The notes beneath the pieces are model-generated. The model was given only the letters and a program-made list of their open reading frames with translations. It ran no database searches and was not told the origin of the DNA. A DNA stretch of 64,000 bases from an uncultured Clostridium sp. (GTDB lineage Bacteria; Bacillota; Clostridia; Lachnospirales; Lachnospiraceae). This document shows positions 14,352 to 63,641 of the stretch, one piece after another (the first letter of the stretch is position 1; every line of letters starts with the position of its first letter). The DNA lies in NCBI GenBank assembly GCA_938036545.1, contig CALHQJ010000010.1:22980-86979 (forward strand). The letters are read 5' to 3'. The position numbers were made by a program, and so were the translations under genes.

Positions 14352-14675
14352 GTGGAACAGTCAATGACAGAAAAAGTAATTATGGAACTGGTAGTCAACA
14401 GCGGAAATGCCAGAAGCCTGGCAATGGAAGCAATCCGGCTGGCCAAAGAAGGAAGCTTTGCAGAAGCAGAGGAAATGCTCCAGACCTCAAAGGACGCTAT
14501 TTTGAAGGCCCATGAGTTTCAGACGGAGCTGGTAAGTAAGGAAGCGGCAGGAGAGAAGGTAGAAACCTCTCTGATTATGTGCCACGGACAGGATCACCTG
14601 ATGACGGCAATGGTCATTATTGATCTGGCAGCAGAATTTATTGATGTGTATAAGAGCATGAAGAAATTGAATTAA
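14352..14675 (+). CDS. PTS lactose/cellobiose-family EIIA
   Basis: It has SGNARSLAMEAIRLAKEG and the conserved active-site segment IMCHGQDHLMTA. The GTG start lies 8 nt after GAGGAGGG. Confidence 0.88.
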   Translation: MEQSMTEKVIMELVVNSGNARSLAMEAIRLAKEGSFAEAEEMLQTSKDAILKAHEFQTELVSKEAAGEKVETSLIMCHGQDHLMTAMVIIDLAAEFIDVYKSMKKLN

Positions 14676-14676
14676 A

Positions 14677-14713
14677 ACAGTCCAGCCATGCGAAGATGAT
14701 GGCGGAACTGTTA
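14677..14713. repeat. palindromic repeat-family copy between EIIA and EIIB genes
   Basis: The sequence aacagtccagccat-gcgaagat-gatggcggaactgttac forms an imperfect hairpin. Its right arm gaagatgatggcggaactgttaca matches the arms at 52311-52336 and 60745-60771. Confidence 0.6.
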
Positions 14714-19049: not shown

Positions 19050-19091
19050 ATAACAGTTCAGCCATGGGAAAATTCATAGCTGAACTGTTAT
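19050..19091. repeat. complete copy of the palindromic repeat family
   Basis: ataacagttcagc (19050-19062) and gctgaactgttat (19079-19091) form a perfect 13-bp inverted repeat around a 16-nt loop. Confidence 0.75.
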
Positions 19092-23127: not shown

Positions 23128-23270
23128 CCCTTATTCAGAGTGATGGAGATACAAAGGATCTGTGAAGTCACGGCAACCCCGATTGTGCGCGGTAAGCGCC
23201 AGGGTCGGAAGGTGCCAGCCTGAGCGAGGAGCTGTGTCCGGTGGGAGGCAGCCAGTCGAGCAATAAGAGG
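23128..23270 (+). promoter_or_regulatory. SAM-I (S-box) riboswitch
   Basis: P1 is cuuauu/aauaag. The core reads cagagugauggagauacaaaggaucugugaagucacggcaacc ... ggugccagccugagc, matching the S-box consensus AGAG.GG.GGAG..GG.C..GAA..C.GCAACC / GGUGCCA. It lies upstream of metK. Confidence 0.8.
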
Positions 23271-23363: not shown

Positions 23364-24551
23364 ATGGAGAGACGTTTATTTACTTCAGAATCAGTAACCG
23401 AAGGACATCCGGATAAGATGTGCGATGCCATCTCTGACGCCGTTTTAGATGCGTTAATGGAGCAGGACCCAATGAGCCGTGTAGCCTGTGAGACAGCTGT
23501 TACCACAGGTCTGGTACTGGTAATGGGTGAAATTACCACCAACGCTTATGTAGATATTCAGAAACTGGTTCGGGAAACCATCCGCGAGATTGGATACGAC
23601 CGTGCAAAATACGGTTTTGACTGCGATACCTGCGGCGTAATTACTGCCATTGACGAGCAGTCTGCCGACATTGCGTTAGGCGTGGACAAGGCTTTAGAAG
23701 CCAAGGAAAATACCATGTCTGACAGCGAGATTGACGCTATCGGCGCTGGCGATCAGGGCATGATGTTTGGCTACGCAACCAATGAGACCGAAGAATATAT
23801 GCCATATCCAATCGCACTGGCACACAAACTGACCCGTCAGCTTACCAAGGTAAGAAAAGACGGCACATTAAAGTACCTGCGTCCGGATGGAAAGAGCCAG
23901 GTAACGGTAGAATATGATGAAGCTGGAAAGCCGGTTCGTCTGGATGCGGTTGTTCTTTCTACCCAGCATGATGAGTCCGTAACTCAGGAGCAGATTCACG
24001 AAGATATTAAAAAATACGTATTTGATCCCGTATTACCGGCTGACATGATTGACGGCAGCACCAAGTTCTTTATCAACCCAACTGGACGTTTCGTAATCGG
24101 CGGCCCTCATGGAGACAGCGGTTTAACTGGACGTAAGATTATCGTAGACACCTACGGCGGATATGCCCGTCACGGCGGCGGCGCATTCTCCGGAAAAGAC
24201 TGCACCAAGGTAGACCGTTCTGCAGCATACGCTGCCCGTTACGTTGCAAAGAATATCGTAGCAGCAGGACTTGCAGACAAGTGCGAAATCCAGCTGTCCT
24301 ACGCAATCGGCGTTGCACATCCGACTTCTGTTATGGTAGATACCTTTGGAACCGGAAGAGTCAGCGACCAGAAGCTGGTTGAGATTGTAAGAGAAAACTT
24401 TGATCTCCGTCCGGCAGGCATCATCAAGATGTTAGACCTGCGCCGTCCGATTTACAAGCAGACTGCTGCTTACGGACATTTTGGCAGAAACGATCTGGAT
24501 CTGCCATGGGAGAAATTAGACAGAGTTGAGACATTAAAGAAGTATTTATAA
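23364..24551 (+). CDS. metK: S-adenosylmethionine synthetase
   Basis: It has [28 protein letters not shown] and GGGAFSGKD. Confidence 0.97.
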
Positions 24552-32216: not shown

Positions 32217-32327
32217 CCCCATATAATGCGCTTAGTATGCCGTAATGCAGATTTCTGTATTTGAAGCGGCTCTAAAAGAGCGGTTTTGGGGCAGACTGAG
32301 ATTAAGAGAAGACAAGATGGAGGCAGC

Positions 32328-38707: not shown

Positions 38708-39415
38708 ATGCAGGCAATCTTACTGGCAGGCGGCTTGGGAACTAGACTTCGCAGCGTCGTAAGCGACAGGCCAAAACCAATGGCTCTTATTGAAGGACGT
38801 CCCTTTATGGAGTATGTAGTTCACGAGTTGTCCCGCCATGGAATTACCCATATTATTTTTGCAGTGGGCTACAAAGGCTCCATGGTAGAGGAATACTTTG
38901 GAGATGGAAGCAGCTTTGGAGTAACGGTTTCCTATGCGTATGAGGAGACGCTGCTGGGAACTGCAGGCGCAATCAAAAATGCAGGAAAATTCATAACCGA
39001 AGATACGTTTTACGTGTTAAATGCAGACACCTTTTACCAGATTGACTACGGCCGTCTTACCAGTCTGCAGCAGGAAAAAAATCTGGATATGGCTCTGGTG
39101 CTTCGGGAAGTTCCAGACGTGTCCCGATACGGGGAAGCAGTTCTTCAGGATGGAATCCTTACGGGATTTAACGAAAAATCAGAAGAAAGCCGTCAGGGAA
39201 CCATTAACGGCGGAATTTACCTGATGAAAAAGGAGCTTCTGGCGGAAATTCCAGAGGGAAAGGTTTCCCTGGAAAATGAAATGATACCCAAATGGATGCA
39301 GGAGGGAAAGCGTCTGGGCGGCTTTGTCAATGACGGATATTTTATTGATATTGGAATACCGGAGGCATACTTCCAGTTTCAGGAAGATGTGAGAAAAGGA
39401 GTGGTAGTATGGTAA
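38708..39415 (+). CDS. hddC: D-glycero-alpha-D-manno-heptose 1-phosphate guanylyltransferase
   Basis: ILLAGGLGTRLRSVVSDRPKPMA is a sugar-1-P nucleotidylyltransferase N-terminus. The gene is clustered with hddA, gmhB and gmhA. Confidence 0.8.
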   Translation: MQAILLAGGLGTRLRSVVSDRPKPMALIEGRPFMEYVVHELSRHGITHIIFAVGYKGSMVEEYFGDGSSFGVTVSYAYEETLLGTAGAIKNAGKFITEDTFYVLNADTFYQIDYGRLTSLQQEKNLDMALVLREVPDVSRYGEAVLQDGILTGFNEKSEESRQGTINGGIYLMKKELLAEIPEGKVSLENEMIPKWMQEGKRLGGFVNDGYFIDIGIPEAYFQFQEDVRKGVVVW

Positions 39416-40479
39416 TTCGAGGACGGGCGCCCCTGAGAGTCAGCTTTGGCGGAGGCGGCACAGACGTAGCCCCATTCTGCGAAGAGCAGGGCGGAGCCAT
39501 TATTGGAAGCACCATCAATAAATATGCATATTGTTCCATTGTACCAAGACAGGATGACCAGATTATCGCTCACTCTCTGGATTTTGATACAACGGTAAAA
39601 TACAATACAAAAGAAAACTACGTCTATGACGGCAAGCTGGATTTGGTAACAGCAGCGTTAAAGGCCATGGACATCCGTCAGGGCTGCGAGGTGTATTTAC
39701 AGTGCGATGCACCTCCAGGTTCCGGTCTTGGAACATCTTCCACGGTTATGGTAGCTCTTTTGACTGCTATGGCCCGCTGGAAAGGCGTGGAGTTAGACAA
39801 TTATGCACTGGCAGATTTGGCTTACCAGGTAGAACGTCTGGATTTGAAGATTGACGGCGGCTACCAGGATCAGTATGCAGCAGCATTCGGAGGCTTTAAT
39901 TTTATTGAGTTTCACGGCCGCAACAATGTGGTAGTCAATCCTTTGAGAATCAAAAAAGACATTATCCATGAACTCCAGTACAATTTGCTTTTGTGCTATA
40001 CCGGAAACATCCATGTTTCTGCAAATATCATCAAAGATCAGGTGAAAAATTACGAGAAAAAAGACGCCTTTGATGCAATGTGCGAGGTAAAGGCCCTGGC
40101 CTATGCCATGAAGGACGAACTGTTAAAGGGGAACCTGTACAGCTTTGGCAAGCTGTTAGATTATGGCTGGGAAAGCAAAAAGAGGATGAGCAGCAAGATT
40201 ACCAATCCCCAGATTGACGAGCTGTATAATGAGGCGAAGAAAGCAGGGGCTTTGGGCGGAAAACTCCTGGGAGCAGGCGGCGGCGGTTTCCTGCTGATGT
40301 TCTGCCCGTATAATATCCGCCATGTAGTAGCAGCCCGTATGGAAGCAGTGGGCGGTCAGGTAACAGACTGGAATTTTGAATTGAGAGGGGCGCAGAGTTG
40401 GATTACCAACGAGGACAGATGGCAGTATGATGCAGTCAAAGTCCATATGCCAAACGGAAATTATGAATTTCAATTATAA
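39409..40479 (+). CDS. hddA: D-glycero-alpha-D-manno-heptose 7-phosphate kinase (GHMP kinase)
   Basis: It has RAPLRVSFGGGGTDVAPF, the GHMP motif PPGSGLGTSSTV and GAGGGGFLLMF. Confidence 0.82.
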   Translation: MVIRGRAPLRVSFGGGGTDVAPFCEEQGGAIIGSTINKYAYCSIVPRQDDQIIAHSLDFDTTVKYNTKENYVYDGKLDLVTAALKAMDIRQGCEVYLQCDAPPGSGLGTSSTVMVALLTAMARWKGVELDNYALADLAYQVERLDLKIDGGYQDQYAAAFGGFNFIEFHGRNNVVVNPLRIKKDIIHELQYNLLLCYTGNIHVSANIIKDQVKNYEKKDAFDAMCEVKALAYAMKDELLKGNLYSFGKLLDYGWESKKRMSSKITNPQIDELYNEAKKAGALGGKLLGAGGGGFLLMFCPYNIRHVVAARMEAVGGQVTDWNFELRGAQSWITNEDRWQYDAVKVHMPNGNYEFQL

Positions 40480-41086
40480 AACGGAAAAACGGCCGGTTAT
40501 TTTTTTAGACAGAGACGGTACGATTAATGAGGAAGTCAACTATCTGCACCGGCCGGAGGATTTAAAGATTCTTCCTGGGGCCGCAGAAGCCATCAGCCGG
40601 TTTAATCAGGCCGGTTTCCTGGTGATAGTCATTACCAATCAGGCCGGAATCGGAAGGGGATATTACACCCAGCAGGATATGGAAAAGCTGAATGAGTATA
40701 TGAATCAGGTTTTGGCAGAACAGGACGCCCACATTGATGGATTTTACTTCTGCCCCCATCATCCGGAGCATGGAATCGGGGAGTATAAGAAAGATTGTGA
40801 CTGCCGAAAGCCTGGGATTGGAATGTTTCGCCAGGCAGAACAGGATTTTTCCATAGAAAAAGCCCATTCCTATATGATAGGAGACAAGCTGATCGATACC
40901 CAGGCCGGACACAACTATGGTGTTTCCTCCATTCTGGTAGGAACTGGATATGGAAAGGAACTATTTGAGACTCAGTGCCAGGGCAGACGAAGAACAACGG
41001 ATTATGAGTATTATGCAGAAAACCTGATGGAAGCAGCAGACTGGATTTTTAAGGAGGAAGGCCAATGGAATCAAGAGAATACGTAA
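40463..41086 (+). CDS. gmhB: D,D-heptose 1,7-bisphosphate phosphatase (HAD)
   Basis: It has FLDRDGTIN, ITNQAGIGRGYY, CPHHPE, CDCRKPGIGM and IGDKLID. The ORF is open from 40427. Confidence 0.85.
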   Translation: MNFNYKTEKRPVIFLDRDGTINEEVNYLHRPEDLKILPGAAEAISRFNQAGFLVIVITNQAGIGRGYYTQQDMEKLNEYMNQVLAEQDAHIDGFYFCPHHPEHGIGEYKKDCDCRKPGIGMFRQAEQDFSIEKAHSYMIGDKLIDTQAGHNYGVSSILVGTGYGKELFETQCQGRRRTTDYEYYAENLMEAADWIFKEEGQWNQENT

Positions 41087-41736
41087 CCTTACTGACAGAA
41101 CGGTATCCAAAATTAAAGGCAATAGAGGGTCAGATTGAGGACGCTTATCAGGTGTTGGAAACCTGCTATGAAAACGGAGGCAAGCTGCTGATTGCAGGAA
41201 ATGGAGGAAGCTGTGCAGACGCAGAGCATATCGTAGGAGAATTGATGAAAGGCTTTGTAAAGCGCCGTAAAGTAAACGAAGAAGAGCAGGCTTTGCTGGA
41301 GCAGGCAGGAAGACAGATCTGCGAGGATAGCAGACTGGAAGAAAACCTGGGAAAAGAACTGGCAGAGTGTCTTCAGGGCGGCCTTCCGGCCATTGCACTG
41401 ACAGGACATAACGGCCTTTCTACAGCATTTTTAAATGATGTAAATGGAGAAATGATTTATGCCCAGCAGCTTTGGGGATATGGCAAGCCAGGAGACGTAT
41501 TTTTGGGGATTTCCACTTCTGGAAACTCGAAAAATATCCTGTATGCCCTGGCAGCAGCAAAGGCAAAAGGCTTAAAGACCGTGGTATTAACAGGGCGGGA
41601 CGGAGGAAAACTGGCAAAATCAGCAGATGCAGCCATTATCGTACCAGAACAGGAAACTTACCAGATTCAGGAGCTGCATCTGCCTGTTTACCATACTCTG
41701 TGCCTGATGTTAGAAGAACACTTTTTTCGTTCGTAG
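41065..41736 (+). CDS. gmhA: phosphoheptose (sedoheptulose-7-P) isomerase, SIS domain
   Basis: It has LIAGNGGSCADAEHIVGEL, LGISTSGNSKNI and IVPEQETYQIQELH. Confidence 0.85.
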   Translation: MESREYVTLLTERYPKLKAIEGQIEDAYQVLETCYENGGKLLIAGNGGSCADAEHIVGELMKGFVKRRKVNEEEQALLEQAGRQICEDSRLEENLGKELAECLQGGLPAIALTGHNGLSTAFLNDVNGEMIYAQQLWGYGKPGDVFLGISTSGNSKNILYALAAAKAKGLKTVVLTGRDGGKLAKSADAAIIVPEQETYQIQELHLPVYHTLCLMLEEHFFRS

Positions 41737-50100: not shown

Positions 50101-51444
50101 ATGTTTGAACATATGAGCGAGCAGGAGGCCAGAAAGGCGATTCTGGACTTAACTGCTGAATACTGCGATACATTTCACAATAAGAAGAAAGCTTTTGAAG
50201 AAGGAGACCGGATTCCCTATGCATCCAGAGTTTATGACCACAATGAAATGGTCAATCTGGTGGATTCTGCCCTGGAGTTTTGGCTGACTTCCGGACGGTA
50301 TACCGACCAGTTTGAGGCCGATTTGGCAAAGTATCTGGGGGTTCGGTACTGCTCTTTAGTAAATTCCGGTTCTTCTGCTAACCTGATTGCATTTATGGCC
50401 CTGACTTCTCCGCTGTTAGGAGACAGACGTGTGAAAAGAGGGGATGAGGTCATTACAGTAGCAGCCGGATTTCCGACTACCGTGACTCCGGCAATTCAGT
50501 ACGGGGCAGTTCCGGTGTTTGTAGACGTTACGATTCCCCAGTATAATATTGATGTAACAAAACTGGAAGACGCCCTGTCAGAAAAGACCAAGGCGGTTAT
50601 GATTGCCCATACCCTGGGAAATCCCTTTAATTTAAAAGCAGTAAAGGAATTTTGCGAGAAACATAATCTCTGGCTGGTAGAAGATAACTGTGATGCATTG
50701 GGAAGCAGATATACCATAGATGGTGAGACGAAGCTGACCGGAACGATTGGAGATATTGGAACCTCCAGCTTTTATCCTCCGCACCACATGACTATGGGTG
50801 AGGGCGGAGCAGTTTATACCAATAATGCCCTGTTAAACAAGATTATCCGTTCATTCAGAGACTGGGGAAGGGACTGTGTCTGCCCGTCTGGAAGAGATAA
50901 TCTGTGCGGACATCGTTTTGACAGACAGTATGGAGAACTGCCATTAGGCTATGATCACAAATATGTATACTCGCATTTTGGATATAATTTAAAGGCGACG
51001 GATTTGCAGGCGTCTATCGGCTGCGCCCAGCTGGAAAAATTCCCTTCATTTGTAGAACGGAGAAAGGAAAATTTTGCCAAATTAAAAGAAGGCCTTTTAG
51101 ACTGTCAGGACAAGGTAATTTTGCCGGAAGCGTGTCCTGGTGCTGATCCCAGCTGGTTTGGCTTTCTGATTACCTGTAAAGAAGGAGTAGACCGAAATCA
51201 GGTGGTTCAGTACGTAGAAGACAGAGGTATCCAGACTCGTATGCTGTTTGCCGGCAACTTGACCAAGCATCCCTGCTTTGATGAGATGCGAAAGACGGGA
51301 GAAGGATACCGCATAGTCGGTGACTTATCAGTGACAGACCGAATTATGAAAGATACATTCTGGGTAGGAGTTTATCCTGGAATGACAGACGAGATGATTG
51401 ATTATATGGCAAAGACCATAAGAGAAGCATTGCAGAATGCTTGA
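50101..51444 (+). CDS. rfbH: CDP-6-deoxy-L-threo-D-glycero-4-hexulose 3-dehydrase (E1, RfbH/DdhC)
   Basis: GDEVITVAAGFPTTVTPAIQYGAVPVFVDV, FYPPHHMTMGEGGA and FRDWGRDCVCPSGRDNLCGHRF (the Fe-S Cys cluster) closely follow my recollection of the Salmonella RfbH sequence. Confidence 0.9.
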   Translation: MFEHMSEQEARKAILDLTAEYCDTFHNKKKAFEEGDRIPYASRVYDHNEMVNLVDSALEFWLTSGRYTDQFEADLAKYLGVRYCSLVNSGSSANLIAFMALTSPLLGDRRVKRGDEVITVAAGFPTTVTPAIQYGAVPVFVDVTIPQYNIDVTKLEDALSEKTKAVMIAHTLGNPFNLKAVKEFCEKHNLWLVEDNCDALGSRYTIDGETKLTGTIGDIGTSSFYPPHHMTMGEGGAVYTNNALLNKIIRSFRDWGRDCVCPSGRDNLCGHRFDRQYGELPLGYDHKYVYSHFGYNLKATDLQASIGCAQLEKFPSFVERRKENFAKLKEGLLDCQDKVILPEACPGADPSWFGFLITCKEGVDRNQVVQYVEDRGIQTRMLFAGNLTKHPCFDEMRKTGEGYRIVGDLSVTDRIMKDTFWVGVYPGMTDEMIDYMAKTIREALQNA

Positions 51445-51464
51445 TGGTCAGGAGGAAATGGAAC

Positions 51465-52295
51465 ATGGATCTGACGAAGGTACATCAGGCAAATCTGGCT
51501 ATATTGAAAGAAATTGACCGGATTTGTCGGGAAGAAGGAATTCAGTATATGCTGGATTCGGGAACCCTGCTTGGGGCTGTCCGCCACAAGGGATTTATTC
51601 CATGGGATGATGATGCAGACGTAGCATTTACCAGAGACAATTATACAAAGTTTATTCGGGCGGCAAGGAAAAAGCTTCCTGCGGGAATGACGTTGCTGGA
51701 GCCGAAGGATCTTAGAAACGGAACGGCATTTTTTGATTTTACTGCCCGAATCTGCTATGACAAAAGCAGTACTCACGAGGATAGCGGAGAAATGCAGTTT
51801 TATGAAGGAAAGCTGAATCATCTGTGGGTAGATCTGTTTACCATTGACGAACTTCCGGAAAATAAGGTGTCTGCGGCATTTACAAAACTGCTTCATACAG
51901 CGATTTACGGTCTCGCCATGGGACACCGCTATCATCTGGACTTTCATAAATATAGCCTTCCAAATAAGATTTTTGTAGGCGGACTGTCTGCTGTAGGAAG
52001 GCTGATTCCAATGAAATGGATTCGTCGGATGCAGTTCTGTGCGGCTGTAAAGGACAAAAAGGGAACCAGCAGCCTGCGCTATTACAGCAATTACCAGCCG
52101 GATTATCTGTATGTAACGTTACAGAAGGAGTGGTGCAGTGATACGGTGGATATGGAATTTGAAGGAGAAATGCTGATGGTTCCGGCAGGCTGGCATCAGG
52201 TTCTGACTTGTGTTTACGGCGATTATATGACGCTGCCGCCAAAGGAAAAACAGGTTCCGGCCCACTCGGATATGGAAATAGAGGTTTTCGATTAA
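51465..52295 (+). CDS. licD: LicD family phosphotransferase (CDP-activated donor)
   Basis: LKEIDRICREEGIQYMLDSGTLLGAVRHKGFIPWDDDADV is the LicD nucleotidyltransferase-fold signature. The ORF is open from 51441 and overlaps the rfbH stop. Confidence 0.85.
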   Translation: MDLTKVHQANLAILKEIDRICREEGIQYMLDSGTLLGAVRHKGFIPWDDDADVAFTRDNYTKFIRAARKKLPAGMTLLEPKDLRNGTAFFDFTARICYDKSSTHEDSGEMQFYEGKLNHLWVDLFTIDELPENKVSAAFTKLLHTAIYGLAMGHRYHLDFHKYSLPNKIFVGGLSAVGRLIPMKWIRRMQFCAAVKDKKGTSSLRYYSNYQPDYLYVTLQKEWCSDTVDMEFEGEMLMVPAGWHQVLTCVYGDYMTLPPKEKQVPAHSDMEIEVFD

Positions 52296-52296
52296 G

Positions 52297-52336
52297 GCTT
52301 ACAGCGAGCAAGAAGATGCATGGCTGAACGGTTACA
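52297..52336. repeat. left 40-nt inverted repeat (half-copy of the palindromic repeat family)
   Basis: gcttacagcgagcaagaagatgcatggctgaacggttaca matches the reverse complement of 53328-53367 at 37 of 40 positions. Confidence 0.85.
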
Positions 52337-52371
52337 TTTGCAGCATGAAAATTGAAAACAGGAGTTGAAAT

Positions 52372-53310
52372 ATGGACGGAGAAAATGAAAAGAAACGCCT
52401 TTCTGTGGTGGTTTCCGTATATAATGAAGAAAAAGCATTAGACCAGTTTTACGCAGAAACCACAAAGGTTTTGAACAGCTTATCCTGGGATTGGGAGCTG
52501 TTGTTTGTCAATGACGGAAGCAGTGACAACAGCCTGGAAGTATTGGACAGGCTGGCAGGGCAGGACAGCCGCGTAAAGGTAATTTCTTTTTCGAGAAATT
52601 TCGGACATGAGTCGGCCATGATTGCGGGAATTGATTATAGTTCTGGAGACGGTGTGGTGTGTATGGATGCAGATTTACAGCATCCGCCGGAATGTCTGCC
52701 AGAGATTGTAGAAAAAATGGAAGAAGGCTATCAGGTTATTACCATGGTGCGTACCAGCAATGAGAGCGCCGGTTTTATTAAAAATGTAGCATCCAGTGCG
52801 TTCTATGCCCTGATTAACCGGATGTCAGATGTCCATTTTGAACCCAATGCATCGGATTTCTTTGCTGTCAGCCGTAAGGCGGCAGAGGTATTAAAGCATA
52901 ATTATAGAGAACGGGTGCGCTTTTTAAGAGGTTATGTCCAGAATATTGGATTTCGTAAGACGTCAATTTCTTATGAAGCCCGACCAAGGGTTGCAGGAGA
53001 GAGTAAATACAGCCTGCGGAAGCTGTTTCGTTTTTCGGTCAATACCATTATGTGTTTTTCCAATATGCCATTAAAGCTGGGGATATTTGCCGGTATTTTG
53101 TCGGCGTTGATTGGAGTCGGCGTGCTGATTTATACTCTGTTTACCAGGCAGGGGGCGCCCAGCGGTTATGCCACTATAGTGGTAGTCATGTGTTTTATGT
53201 TTGCCATGATGTTTGTGGTAATCGGCATTATTGGAGAATATATATCCGTACTGTTTAATGAATTGAAGGATCGTCCGATTTACATCGTAGAAGATGTTAA
53301 GAACTTATAA
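52372..53310 (+). CDS. GtrB/CsbB/ArnC-like polyprenyl-phosphate glycosyltransferase (GT2 with two C-terminal TMs)
   Basis: It has LSVVVSVYNEE, LFVNDGSSDNS, SRNFGHESA and CMDADLQHPP, plus C-terminal TMs (LGIFAGILSALIGVGVLIYTLF; VVVMCFMFAMMFVVIGIIGEYI). Confidence 0.88.
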   Translation: MDGENEKKRLSVVVSVYNEEKALDQFYAETTKVLNSLSWDWELLFVNDGSSDNSLEVLDRLAGQDSRVKVISFSRNFGHESAMIAGIDYSSGDGVVCMDADLQHPPECLPEIVEKMEEGYQVITMVRTSNESAGFIKNVASSAFYALINRMSDVHFEPNASDFFAVSRKAAEVLKHNYRERVRFLRGYVQNIGFRKTSISYEARPRVAGESKYSLRKLFRFSVNTIMCFSNMPLKLGIFAGILSALIGVGVLIYTLFTRQGAPSGYATIVVVMCFMFAMMFVVIGIIGEYISVLFNELKDRPIYIVEDVKNL

Positions 53311-53327
53311 AATGGGGAAAATGTAAT

Positions 53328-53395
53328 GTAACAGTTCAGCCATGTATCTTCTTGCCCGCTGTAAGCGTGCAAGAAGCGTCGGGCAACTGTTACAA
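53328..53395. repeat. complete 68-nt palindromic repeat-family element (right inverted repeat)
   Basis: The outer arms are tgtaacagtt...aactgttaca, the inner pairing is cttcttgc/gcaagaag and the apex is cgctgtaagcg. The left arm is the inverted partner of 52297-52336. Confidence 0.85.
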
Positions 53396-53422
53396 TTTAA
53401 TAAAAACTTTTCGAATAGGCTA

Positions 53423-53451
53423 TTGTATATTGGTCAATTTCATGGTATAAT
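53423..53451 (+). promoter_or_regulatory. promoter TTGTAT-17-TATAAT (TGn extended)
   Basis: ttgtat lies at 53423-53428 and tggtataat ends at 53451. Confidence 0.55.
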
Positions 53452-53523
53452 GACTATACGAATTTAAGAAGCCTAAGAGACATTGATTGACGATCGCTTT
53501 ATGTGTTTAATGGGGTGATGTGT

Positions 53524-53769
53524 ATGTTGACAAAACAGGTTGACATTCTTGCCCCGTATCGGACGTTGCCAATATCCTATCTTGTAAGGACTACGAATCA
53601 ATTTACCTGTGATATTTATATACAGGGTGACGCCACGAGGATCAATGTAAAGGATTATGAGGCGATGCAGACGGGGTTGCAGCCGCGGGGGAACAGTCTA
53701 GTATTTTATTTAGAAGGAAGTGACGAAGGAGAGGCGGAGTTAAGGCTTCGGCGCCTGTTCAGAGTTTAA
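53524..53769 (+). CDS. degenerate HPr-fold protein (His15 and Ser46 positions substituted)
   Basis: Its length and pattern match HPr (..FTCDIYIQGDATRINVKDYEAMQ..LVFYLEGSDEGEAE..). The His15 loop reads APYRTLPIS, however, and the Ser46 site reads KDYEAM. Confidence 0.55.
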   Translation: MLTKQVDILAPYRTLPISYLVRTTNQFTCDIYIQGDATRINVKDYEAMQTGLQPRGNSLVFYLEGSDEGEAELRLRRLFRV

Positions 53770-53923: not shown

Positions 53924-54352
53924 ATGGGAACCCAATTGGATGGTATTATCAATGAAAATTATACAAAGCTTAATAATCTGGATTTTCATATCCTGAATTT
54001 TATTCAGAATAATCTGCATCTAAGCGCTACGTTGAGTATTGCAAAACTGGCTGAAAGATGCAATGTTTCTACAGCAACGGTACTTCGCATGACGCAAAAG
54101 TTAAATTTCAGCGGATATAGTGAATTTAAATATTTTTTGAAAAATGATGATGCACAGGAAGAAACACAGGATATAGATGCCATAGAAGTAATTAATCAGG
54201 ATATTGCCCAGACGATAAAAATGTTTCGTCAGAATGGGCAGATAGAAGAAATTTATAAGAAGATAGATGAAGCAGAAAATATATATGCTTATGGAACAGG
54301 GCAGGGACAGAGACTGATGCTCTATATACAATCTGACAGGCGGTTTCGTTAA
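53924..54352 (+). pseudogene. MurR/RpiR family regulator, 3'-truncated inside the SIS domain
   Basis: The HTH_6 is intact (IAKLAERCNVSTATVLRMTQKLNFSGYSEFK). The SIS domain only starts (NIYAYGTGQGQ) before the frame runs into the antisense EIIB remnant. Confidence 0.7.
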
Positions 54353-55162
54353 TGCGTATCAGTCCTAAAGAACCGATGGTTTTCAGCGCATTTTCATTAA
54401 TTACAGATGTATCTTTTAAGATCAGGCGAAGCCTAGAAATACAGTTGTCAATCTCTACGATATTTTCTTTTCCGCCAACTGCATTACCGATACATACACC
54501 TAATAACGTGTTAATAAGGAATGACATACCGGCCATAAAAGCGTGGAACAGCCACAATAGCGGAGAGATAAAGAAGAAGGAAAACTCAATAGGTTCTGTA
54601 ATGCCAGTGAAGAAACTGGTTAAACCGGCGGCTAAAAGCATACTTTTACTTTTTCACGGTTTTTGGGCAACGCAGTTTTGTACATAGCGAAACATGCAGC
54701 AGGAAGATCAAATACCATAAAAGGATGGGTACCCTGAGTCAGGAATCTGGTAGCTTGACGCATTATATCCATATTTGGATTGCTGGACATTAATAATTGA
54801 TTAAAGATATTTAATGCACCGGAAATCTGTTCGCCATCAATCATAGCAGTCCACAAGCCTACAACGATACCTCCGAAAATACTCATGCGATAGGTAAAAA
54901 TACCCATTACAGTATCATAAGCCGCATTTTCCTGCGTAGCCTCTAAGAGGCTCATTCCCTGACTGGTTAAGTAGTCAATGCTGGTGGTTTCAGCGGTAAT
55001 TCCGTTTATTTGCAAAAAGAAACGGATAGTAGTATGGAATAAAATAAATCCGATCACAGATGAAAATTTGCGATTATTTAACACAATATTTGTAAATAGT
55101 TTAGGGAAAATGTTGGACAAAAGAAAAATGTTACATTTTATGAAATTTATTACATAAATCAT
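54327..55162 (-). pseudogene. PTS glucose/maltose-family EIICB remnant (frameshifted, internally deleted, 3'-truncated)
   Basis: The EIIC motif is FFTGITEPIEFSF and the EIIB motif is GGKENIVEIDNCISRLRLILKD. The N-terminal part lies in another frame (54632-55162), and EIIC segments are missing. Confidence 0.7.
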
Positions 55163-61947: not shown

Positions 61948-62046
61948 TTTCAGAATGTAAGACTATAAGCTGACAGGACAACCGGTTTTCTGGTTGCCCT
62001 GTACACAGCCGGTAAAGTGTGCTAGAATGGATGACAGTGTGATAGA

Positions 62047-62063
62047 ATGGCTGAACTGTTACC
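62047..62063. repeat. half-copy of the palindromic repeat family upstream of cls
   Basis: atggctgaactgttacc is the reverse complement of the core at 19051-19066 and 53329-53344. Confidence 0.6.
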
Positions 62064-62105
62064 AGAATGAAAAAGTATTTTTTAGTTATAAGAAAGGAAA
62101 CAACG

Positions 62106-63608
62106 ATGCAGATGGTATTAGAAGGATTGGGCATGGCCTGGAACTGGCTGTTGGACAATATTTTATTTATTAACCTGATTTTGTCCATAGTCATTGTTTT
62201 TTTTCAGAGAAGAGATCCAAAAGCAGTGTGGACATGGCTTCTCGCCCTTTATTTTATCCCGGGCTTTGGTATTATATTTTACCTGCTGTTTGGCCAGGAT
62301 TTCCGCAAGAGCAAAATGTTCCGGATTAAAAATCTGGAAGATCAGATGGGAACGTCGATCCGCAGCCAGGAGGAAATTCTTCGGAATTTCAACCACGAAA
62401 ATATGGACGATCCCCTGGTTCGGGATTACGGCGATTTAATTATGTATAATCTGAGAACTTCCGGCAGCGTTCTTACGGTGCACAATGACGTTAAGATTTT
62501 TTCAGACGGAGAGGCCAAGTTTGAGGATTTGCGGAACAGTCTGCGAAAGGCAGAGAAGTTTATCCATATTCAGTATTACATTATTAAAAATGATGAAGTC
62601 TTTGATTCGATTGTTCCGATTTTAATTGACCGGGTAAGGAACGGCGTAGAAGTCCGGATTCTCTATGACGGCATGGGCGGCCGTTTTATGCCGAAAAAGC
62701 GCTGGGAAGAATTACAAAAAGCGGGAGTTCAGGTAGGCGTATTTTTTCCTGCCCTCCTGGGCCGTTTAAACCTGCGTGTCAATTACCGAAACCACCGTAA
62801 AATCGTAGTAATTGACGGAGTTGTAGGATATGTAGGCGGCTTTAATATCGGACGGGAATATATTTCCAGAGATCCCAAGTTCGGCTATTGGAGGGATACA
62901 CATTTAAAGATTACCGGAGACGCAGTTATCAGCCTGCAGATCCGCTTTGCTCTGGACTGGAATTATGCAACCCATGAAAATCTCTTCCAGATGCCCATGT
63001 ATTTTGATTCACCCTACCGCAACGGCCTGGTAAGAGCCATGCAGGAAGAAGGAAGACGGCTGGTGGCAATCCAGATTGTAGCCAGCGGTCCGGATACTCT
63101 GGATCGCCAGATCCGCAACAATTATCTGGAACTGTTCCACAAGGCAAGAAAGAGCATCTATATTCATACTCCTTATTTTGTACCGGATGACGCCGTTCAG
63201 TCTGCCTTGCGGATAGCCGCCAGATCCGGCGTGGACGTGCGGCTTATGATTCCCTGCAAACCAGACCATCCCTTTGTATACTGGGCTACGTATTCCTATG
63301 CCGGCGATTTAATCGAAGCCGGAGCCAGGTGCTATGTGTACGACAATGGATTCCTTCATGCCAAAGGCGTTATGGTAGACGGACGGGTCAGCAGCTATGG
63401 CACTGCTAATATGGATATCCGAAGCTTTGAACTGAATTTTGAAGTCAATGCAACGATTTATGATGAAACCATTACCCAGCAGCTGGAAGAAGAGTTTTTA
63501 AATGATCTGAAGCACTGTCGGGAAATTACGAAGGAAGTATACGAATCCAGATCCCTGCTGATCCGAATTAAGGAACAGGGCAGCCGGCTGCTTTCACCGC
63601 TGCTGTAA
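62106..63608 (+). CDS. cls: cardiolipin synthase (two HKD motifs)
   Basis: It has N-terminal TMs, HRKIVVIDG and a second HKD, FLHAKGVMVDG. The ORF is open from 62067. Confidence 0.92.
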   Translation: MQMVLEGLGMAWNWLLDNILFINLILSIVIVFFQRRDPKAVWTWLLALYFIPGFGIIFYLLFGQDFRKSKMFRIKNLEDQMGTSIRSQEEILRNFNHENMDDPLVRDYGDLIMYNLRTSGSVLTVHNDVKIFSDGEAKFEDLRNSLRKAEKFIHIQYYIIKNDEVFDSIVPILIDRVRNGVEVRILYDGMGGRFMPKKRWEELQKAGVQVGVFFPALLGRLNLRVNYRNHRKIVVIDGVVGYVGGFNIGREYISRDPKFGYWRDTHLKITGDAVISLQIRFALDWNYATHENLFQMPMYFDSPYRNGLVRAMQEEGRRLVAIQIVASGPDTLDRQIRNNYLELFHKARKSIYIHTPYFVPDDAVQSALRIAARSGVDVRLMIPCKPDHPFVYWATYSYAGDLIEAGARCYVYDNGFLHAKGVMVDGRVSSYGTANMDIRSFELNFEVNATIYDETITQQLEEEFLNDLKHCREITKEVYESRSLLIRIKEQGSRLLSPLL

Positions 63609-63615
63609 GAGTATG

Positions 63616-63641
63616 GATGCCTCCCGTCCTGAACAGTTACC
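63616..63641. repeat. half-copy of the palindromic repeat family downstream of cls
   Basis: Compare gatgcctcccgtcctgaacagttacc with gatgctccgtcctgaaccgttgc at 60749-60771. Confidence 0.55.

Follow-up and report, generated by a model that had tools for sequence, protein, structure and literature searches.

Bacterial MITEs are known from the Correia elements of Neisseria and from the RUP, BOX and SPRITE elements of Streptococcus pneumoniae. The family that we describe here has much in common with them: a length of 100 to 200 nt, a non-coding sequence, terminal inverted repeats and a target-site duplication; tens of copies, which occupy the intergenic spacers of operons, are co-transcribed and form hairpins; and decay by internal deletion, with unfilled sites in relatives. 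It differs from known MITEs in sequence, in host range, which extends over many genera of Lachnospiraceae, and in having a two-hairpin interior with a conserved GC-rich centre. Relative to the Correia elements, which duplicate TA, it also differs in duplicating 8 bp.

Two other described systems invite comparison with the locus at which we met this family. Gut Firmicutes contain many invertons, and here, as in those, a short stretch beside a gene for a surface structure has inverted repeats on both sides; unlike inverton repeats, the ones at this locus are unconserved, generic transposon ends, found in one orientation and with no recombinase encoded in the window, by which we mean the whole 64,000-nt stretch of DNA that was analysed. 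The gtr operons of Salmonella and its phages, which are phase-variable by way of a Dam/OxyR epigenetic switch, likewise include a GtrB-type polyprenyl-phosphate glycosyltransferase for a surface glycan. A parallel with such operons had been drawn in a first-pass annotation of the window, but there is no sign of any switch at this locus.

We consider it highly probable that the inverted repeats are the remnants of two separate MITE insertions, one in the spacer upstream and one in the spacer downstream of a resident gtrB gene. The repeats around gtrB are an ordinary consequence of MITE insertion and decay, and it is the MITE family itself that is mildly new.

The gtrB gene and its flanking repeats

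The gene between the repeats (52372-53310, plus strand) encodes a 312-aa, GtrB-like protein of the GT2 type (PF00535, Glycos_transf_2, E 4.6e-32) that resembles polyprenyl-phosphate glycosyltransferases; its nearest named homologues are GT2 proteins of Lacrimispora and Enterocloster, at 76% identity. It is the last cistron of a polysaccharide cluster. The last of the genes upstream of it belongs to the licD family (51441-52295, plus strand; PF04991, LicD, E 7.2e-33), and others encode a DegT-type enzyme, a dehydratase/epimerase and a nucleotidyltransferase. Domain scans of the window ORFs recognised neither gtrA nor gtrC adjoining gtrB.

Transcription of gtrB most likely proceeds by read-through from licD, as in relatives that lack the repeats. 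A promoter scan of the plus strand found no sigma-70-like site between licD and the gtrB ATG, and a metatranscriptome RNA contig (51978-52664) runs from licD across the left repeat into gtrB; as it crosses the licD-gtrB junction, it is consistent with read-through transcription. The first-pass annotation had noted the missing promoter and had proposed expression from the upstream operon, and in both respects our results agree with it. They also agree on the absence of a recombinase from the window: Pfam scans of its approximately 60 ORFs found no recombinase, integrase or transposase domain.

A repeat search places the two arms at 52297-52338 and 53325-53366 (42 nt, 93% complementary, with 986 nt between them), and this pair is the longest inverted repeat of the entire 64-kb window. 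Its 40-nt core, 52297-52336 against 53327-53366, is identical at 37 of 40 positions, with mismatches at positions 11, 22 and 34; the perfect runs common to both arms measure 10, 10, 11 and 8 nt, and 0 of 100 shuffles contained two matches to the core. The repeat search and the shuffles thus confirm the earlier report of 40-nt inverted repeats (37/40) around the GtrB-like gene, which is indeed the single real gene that they enclose, and the corrections needed are small. The right arm had been placed at 53328-53367, one base off, and 18 nt past the gtrB stop, whereas it begins 16 nt after that codon (53308-53310); the enclosed distance, given as 991 bp, measures 990 nt; and the left arm, said to start 2 nt after the licD stop (52293-52295), is separated from it by one base (G, 52296).

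Alignment to a full-length, 151-nt copy from an uncultured Lachnospiraceae genome (L107, 2619-2769) shows the two arms to be unequal parts of one kind of element. The left arm (52297-52335, plus strand) is a truncated MITE remnant that aligns to only the last 39 columns of the reference and comprises the 3' half of the inner hairpin B and the terminal inverted repeat GCATGGCTGAACGGTTAC. It has no second end and no target duplication, and its identity to the family suggests that it arose from a full copy by deletion. The right arm is the first 39 nt of an internally deleted copy of 66 nt (53328-53393, minus strand), which aligns to both ends of the reference across an 85-column internal gap and retains one full terminal repeat along with hairpin B and the beginning of the centre; the other terminal repeat survives only in its last 9 nt. 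This copy folds into an imperfect hairpin of its own, and the right arm belongs to a larger, imperfect palindrome whose last bases, up to 53393, are AACTGTTAC.

An 8-bp target-site duplication flanks the right copy alone and not the unit of arm, gtrB and arm. Its left copy, AATGTAAT (53320-53327), matches its right copy, AATTTAAT (53394-53401), at 7 of 8 positions. The outer ends that have been retained, at 52335 on the left and 53328 on the right, both face gtrB, so the gene lies between two elements and not inside one.

In the explanation that we favor, one MITE would have inserted in the spacer upstream of gtrB and another in the downstream spacer, each insertion duplicating 8 bp of target. 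The downstream copy (53328-53393) would then have lost about 85 nt of its interior, and the upstream copy (52297-52335) would have been reduced to half of hairpin B and one terminal repeat. Because the element is palindromic and the two copies are oppositely oriented, the parts retained would read as a 40-nt inverted repeat. With both outer ends facing it, gtrB would stand outside both elements and would therefore be neither cargo nor an invertible segment.

A MITE family in Lachnospiraceae

A scan with a 16-nt motif of one genome per GTDB species found at least 119 stretches, nearly all of them in Lachnospiraceae of many genera, including Mediterraneibacter, Blautia, Acetatifactor, Muricomes, Roseburia, Lachnospira and Eisenbergiella. 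Many of these loci hold two inverted copies of the motif, most often 168 nt apart; element length clusters at 140-200 nt, and the full element measures about 150-190 nt. Complete copies end in terminal inverted repeats, GTAACAGTTCAGCCATGC and GCATGGCTGAACTGTTAC, and are laid out as the terminal repeat GTAACAGTTCAGCCATGC, hairpin A, the GC-rich centre ATAGGGCGGACGCCCGAC, hairpin B and the second terminal repeat. The 8-mers flanking complete elements are identical at 7 or 8 of 8 positions in 42 of 72 cases; with the 8-mers displaced by 9 nt, as a control, the figure is 0 of 72. This contrast identifies the family as a MITE that makes 8-bp target duplications. Alongside the terminal inverted repeats and a target duplication of fixed length, we find the elements to be small, non-coding and multicopy, and to vary in presence and absence, with an unfilled site.

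The family appears to be both widespread in Lachnospiraceae and undescribed. No published description was found in the searchable literature. Rfam, searched at gathering thresholds with the window and four loci that contain full-length copies, has no family for the element, its matches there being SAM riboswitch, tRNA and rRNA only, and a distant-mode search of PLSDB plasmids with a full-length copy gave no match.

Within the window, 8 sites match the motif TAACAGTTCAGCCATG with no more than 3 mismatches, where 0.47 would be expected; this bears out the earlier assignment of the arms to a dispersed palindromic family. Most of these sites are in intergenic spacers, and several sit directly after stop codons inside operons. 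Two minimal family members occur: one at 14675-14713, which consists of two termini only and lies between PTS IIA and IIB genes, and one at 19050-19091, a 42-nt hairpin made of two termini. A lone family terminus (62046-62061, minus strand) is found just upstream of a PLD-domain gene (62067-63608).

The copy number of the element is evident from Logan contigs. At 90% likeness, four DNA runs give 25-70x unique depth over 53327-53384 and 4-7x unique depth over the left arm; at 97% likeness, in four further DNA runs, depth is still 5-11x unique depth. Many of the contigs hold only the 58-nt piece 53327-53384, and loose contig ends beyond 53384 read GTCCGCCCTATGAAGATTCAGACAG, that is, into the interior of the full-length element, indicating longer copies elsewhere in the same samples. 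The element is thus present at tens of copies per genome-equivalent in the runs that hold the locus.

In other genomes the MITE also occurs in tandem or nested arrays. At one locus (L116, 1657-2006) two MITE copies are adjacent, and at another (L123, 2548-2935) several left ends are paired with one right end. In run X3, a contig (depth 12.5, 29 nt on its shorter side) has the end of the left arm joined directly to the start of the right arm, 52337 to 53327. This joint most likely comes from a different locus at which two family copies abut, in the manner of L116 and L123; a deletion of gtrB does not explain it, because the match stops short of licD.

The ancestry of the family may lie with a described group of insertion sequences. 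Elements of the IS66 family have an IR starting GTAAGCG and an 8-bp DR (PMC11946415). The GTAA start and the 8-bp duplication are common to both, with only the first four bases of our family matching the IS66 consensus, and from these ends and this duplication the parent transposase would be of the IS66 type. An all-against-all ORF comparison among the at least 119 loci found no recurrent ORF beside lone termini, and no transposase with family ends was found, only housekeeping families appearing among the best 25 of 104 Pfam families for 64 neighbouring ORFs. Because no transposase was found beside the lone ends, a derivation from IS66 is put forward here as a lead and not as a result.

Strains, relatives and competing explanations

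The same GtrB, identical in sequence, is encoded in 23 contigs, and the 9 places listed have the order licD-gtrB-rpiR in the orientation of the window. Strains with this GtrB have the same left arm and two different alleles of the right copy. Allele B keeps the first ~33 nt, followed by parts of hairpin A, and so shows another internal deletion at the same site. The two right alleles are independent internal deletions of one ancestral full-length insertion.

Relatives at greater distance hold the gene in place without its repeats. In three of them (L010-L012), whose GtrB is 96% identical, gene order and orientation are the same, the licD-gtrB spacer measures 42 nt and contains no arm, and the downstream spacer has a single AAGTTAAT where the window has AATGTAAT, the 66-nt copy and AATTTAAT; this single AAGTTAAT is the unfilled target site. 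The C-terminus of licD and the context of its stop (TAAG) are identical in L010. Order and orientation of licD and gtrB are likewise kept, and both arms are absent, in L135 (GtrB 89% identical) and in L013-L015 (85%). A further relative (L136, 92%) has no right element and a divergent left spacer, which begins GCTTACAGCG, ends GGTTACA and is not fully derivable from the element. Since the arms are absent and gene order is kept in relatives, gtrB is the resident and the arms are later, separate arrivals. The divergent left spacer of one haplotype and the two deletion alleles on the right show that the arms were acquired, or decayed, independently of one another.

An effect of the remnants on RNA is unlikely, and it would be a by-product of the insertions, an addition to the MITE explanation and compatible with it rather than an alternative. 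The remnants would pair as a duplex of ~40 bp, looping out the gtrB coding sequence, and would form an RNase III site or a stabilising clamp, with gtrB altered relative to the upstream operon. Long-range pairing of the arms, which the first-pass annotation had also raised, is predicted in both the MFE and the centroid folds of 52280-53420, and the RNA contig puts the left arm within the transcribed spacer; the predicted duplex and the contig across the licD-gtrB junction together make it conceivable that the gtrB message is processed or stabilised. The 2026 raw RNA runs filed under this organism label are all host poly-A or single-cell libraries, of no use for a bacterial transcript. In Neisseria, the hairpins formed by the repeats of Correia elements are sites of RNase III processing. 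The arms are, however, absent in sister lineages, and allele-B strains would have only ~33 nt of complementarity. Local folding competes as well, as the right copy has a partner of its own, transcribed directly behind it, with which it can pair, and a 1-kb loop would be opposed by translating ribosomes.

It is more doubtful still that the two remnants, brought together by chance, have been co-opted, with gtrB expression modulated through the predicted 40-bp RNA duplex or through rare recombination of one arm with the other. If they had been, this dog-gut lineage would have strain-specific control of the modification of a cell-surface glycan, and the MITE family would be a general source of operon-internal structures across genera of Lachnospiraceae.

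The first-pass annotation had proposed an invertible cassette, to be recognised by two orientations of the segment in reads or contigs and by comparison of strains. A recombinase encoded elsewhere would flip 52337-53326 and turn gtrB off, and inverted repeats around a promoterless surface-glycosylation gene are what such a switch would present. We regard it as very unlikely. One orientation only is seen in the 23 contigs (9 places listed), in 8 DNA runs and in 5 spanning long reads: the contigs from the DNA runs lead out of licD, across the left arm and gtrB, as far as the right arm, with no strand-changing joint even at a reporting threshold of 1%, and the five Nanopore reads, raw reads from two metagenomes, span the whole segment collinear with the window. 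With only about 5 spanning reads, and with Logan contigs dropping rare variants, these data exclude frequent inversion, above roughly 10-20% of cells. A third Nanopore run had almost zero coverage at the locus. The JGI metagenome contigs gave 0 matches to the inverted junction and, as a control, 0 to the reference junction, the locus being absent from that collection.

The arms themselves also argue against a switch. They vary between strains and are absent in close relatives, the orientation of gtrB being constant throughout. They are generic copies of an element that numbers tens per genome-equivalent, and their identical runs, of at most 11 nt, are too short for efficient RecA-type homologous recombination. 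Neither a second orientation, within the limits of a search able to detect only frequent variants, nor a recombinase in the window, nor conservation of the repeats in relatives was found. One Nanopore record (X31, record 17) has a reverse-strand piece, which we rejected as an inversion, its geometry fitting a fold-back (duplex) read that turns near 55.9 kb.

The first-pass annotation also allowed that the repeats could be REP-like insertions, and insertions of a dispersed palindromic family they are, but of a MITE with 8-bp target duplications and not of REP elements. That they should instead be REP or BIME elements, spread by a RAYT (Y1) transposase, is very improbable. Copies are short, palindromic and intergenic, several lying directly past stop codons inside operons, as this reading would have it. 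Most complete copies, however, are flanked by 8-bp target duplications, and REPs are not known to make any; the full length of 150-190 nt, with distinct terminal repeats, and the window ORFs, among which no RAYT-like gene was seen, also speak against it.

Although the arms are transposon ends of a demonstrably mobile family, a mobile cassette or composite transposon that delivered gtrB, or could move it, with both flanking repeats, as proposed earlier, is scarcely credible, for the ends that remain are turned toward the gene. Of the outward-facing ends on which composite transposition depends, the left one is missing and the right one has shrunk to 9 nt; the 8-bp duplication surrounds the right copy alone, and relatives have gtrB at the same locus without arms.

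Two further candidates for the repeated sequence were rejected. A cre (CcpA) operator, considered for the TGTAAC..GTTACA motif, was set aside by eye, given its poor fit to the consensus and the target duplications, and an integron attC site was set aside because core and inverse-core sites are absent.

Two MITE insertions beside a resident gene, the explanation that we favor, have a bearing on how similar loci are read. In genomes rich in palindromic MITEs, a gene with a copy in each of its spacers mimics a cassette bracketed by inverted repeats, and comparison with sister lineages quickly resolves such pseudo-cassettes. Bracketing by this family is seen in three more examples in other genomes, with one possible example in the window. 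Judged by eye from the translations, the genes bracketed by family termini are a 289-aa ORF resembling glucosamine-6-phosphate deaminase (L097), a Rex repressor-like gene (L099) and a CobT-like gene (L103). In the window, the PLD-domain gene at 62067-63608, by appearance a cardiolipin synthase gene, is followed 20 nt past its stop by a weaker terminus-like site, AACTGTTCAGG (63628-63638), in addition to the lone terminus upstream, and may be a second family-bracketed gene. With its GTAACAGTTCAGCCATGC ends, 8-bp duplication, two-hairpin interior and deletion-prone decay, the family could serve as a strain marker, and it may affect operon transcripts in abundant gut bacteria.

Other features of the locus and its surroundings

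In L013-L015, the licD-gtrB spacer measures 98 nt (about 2903-3000 in L013) and contains a different repeat, GCCCGGCGGCGGACTTT(T)CATAGGAAA, present twice in tandem. On the far side of gtrB, downstream, the same relatives have a lone CGGCTGAATAGTTAC, similar to a family terminus but oppositely oriented.

Between the right MITE copy and an HPr-like ORF (53503-53769), the hexamers TTGTAT and TATAAT lie 17 nt apart at 53425-53452, with a TG one base upstream of the second hexamer. The downstream unit is probably transcribed from this site, which is conserved in arm-less relatives and is not listed by the simple promoter scan.

Farther downstream, the window differs from two strains in its rpiR and PTS genes. 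At 53924-55162 only the HTH domain (142 aa) is left of an rpiR-like gene, after which come a 111-aa ORF and a 176-aa PTS EIIC fragment on the other strand. In L004 and L009 (7564-12779) there are an intact RpiR of 255 aa (HTH_6 and SIS), two peptidase-like genes and a full PTS EIICB of 525 aa. The difference has the look of a deletion at strain level, with remnants of two genes left behind.

The first gene of the polysaccharide cluster that ends with gtrB, at 32286, is that of a Wzt-type ABC transporter. Within it, four adjacent genes (38708-41736) encode a nucleotidyltransferase, a GHMP kinase, a HAD phosphatase and a SIS isomerase, and their domains suggest a resemblance to a nucleotide-activated heptose pathway. 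Elsewhere in the window, a SAM riboswitch (RF00162, 57 bits) is found at 23128-23269, upstream of an S-adenosylmethionine synthetase gene (23364-24551).
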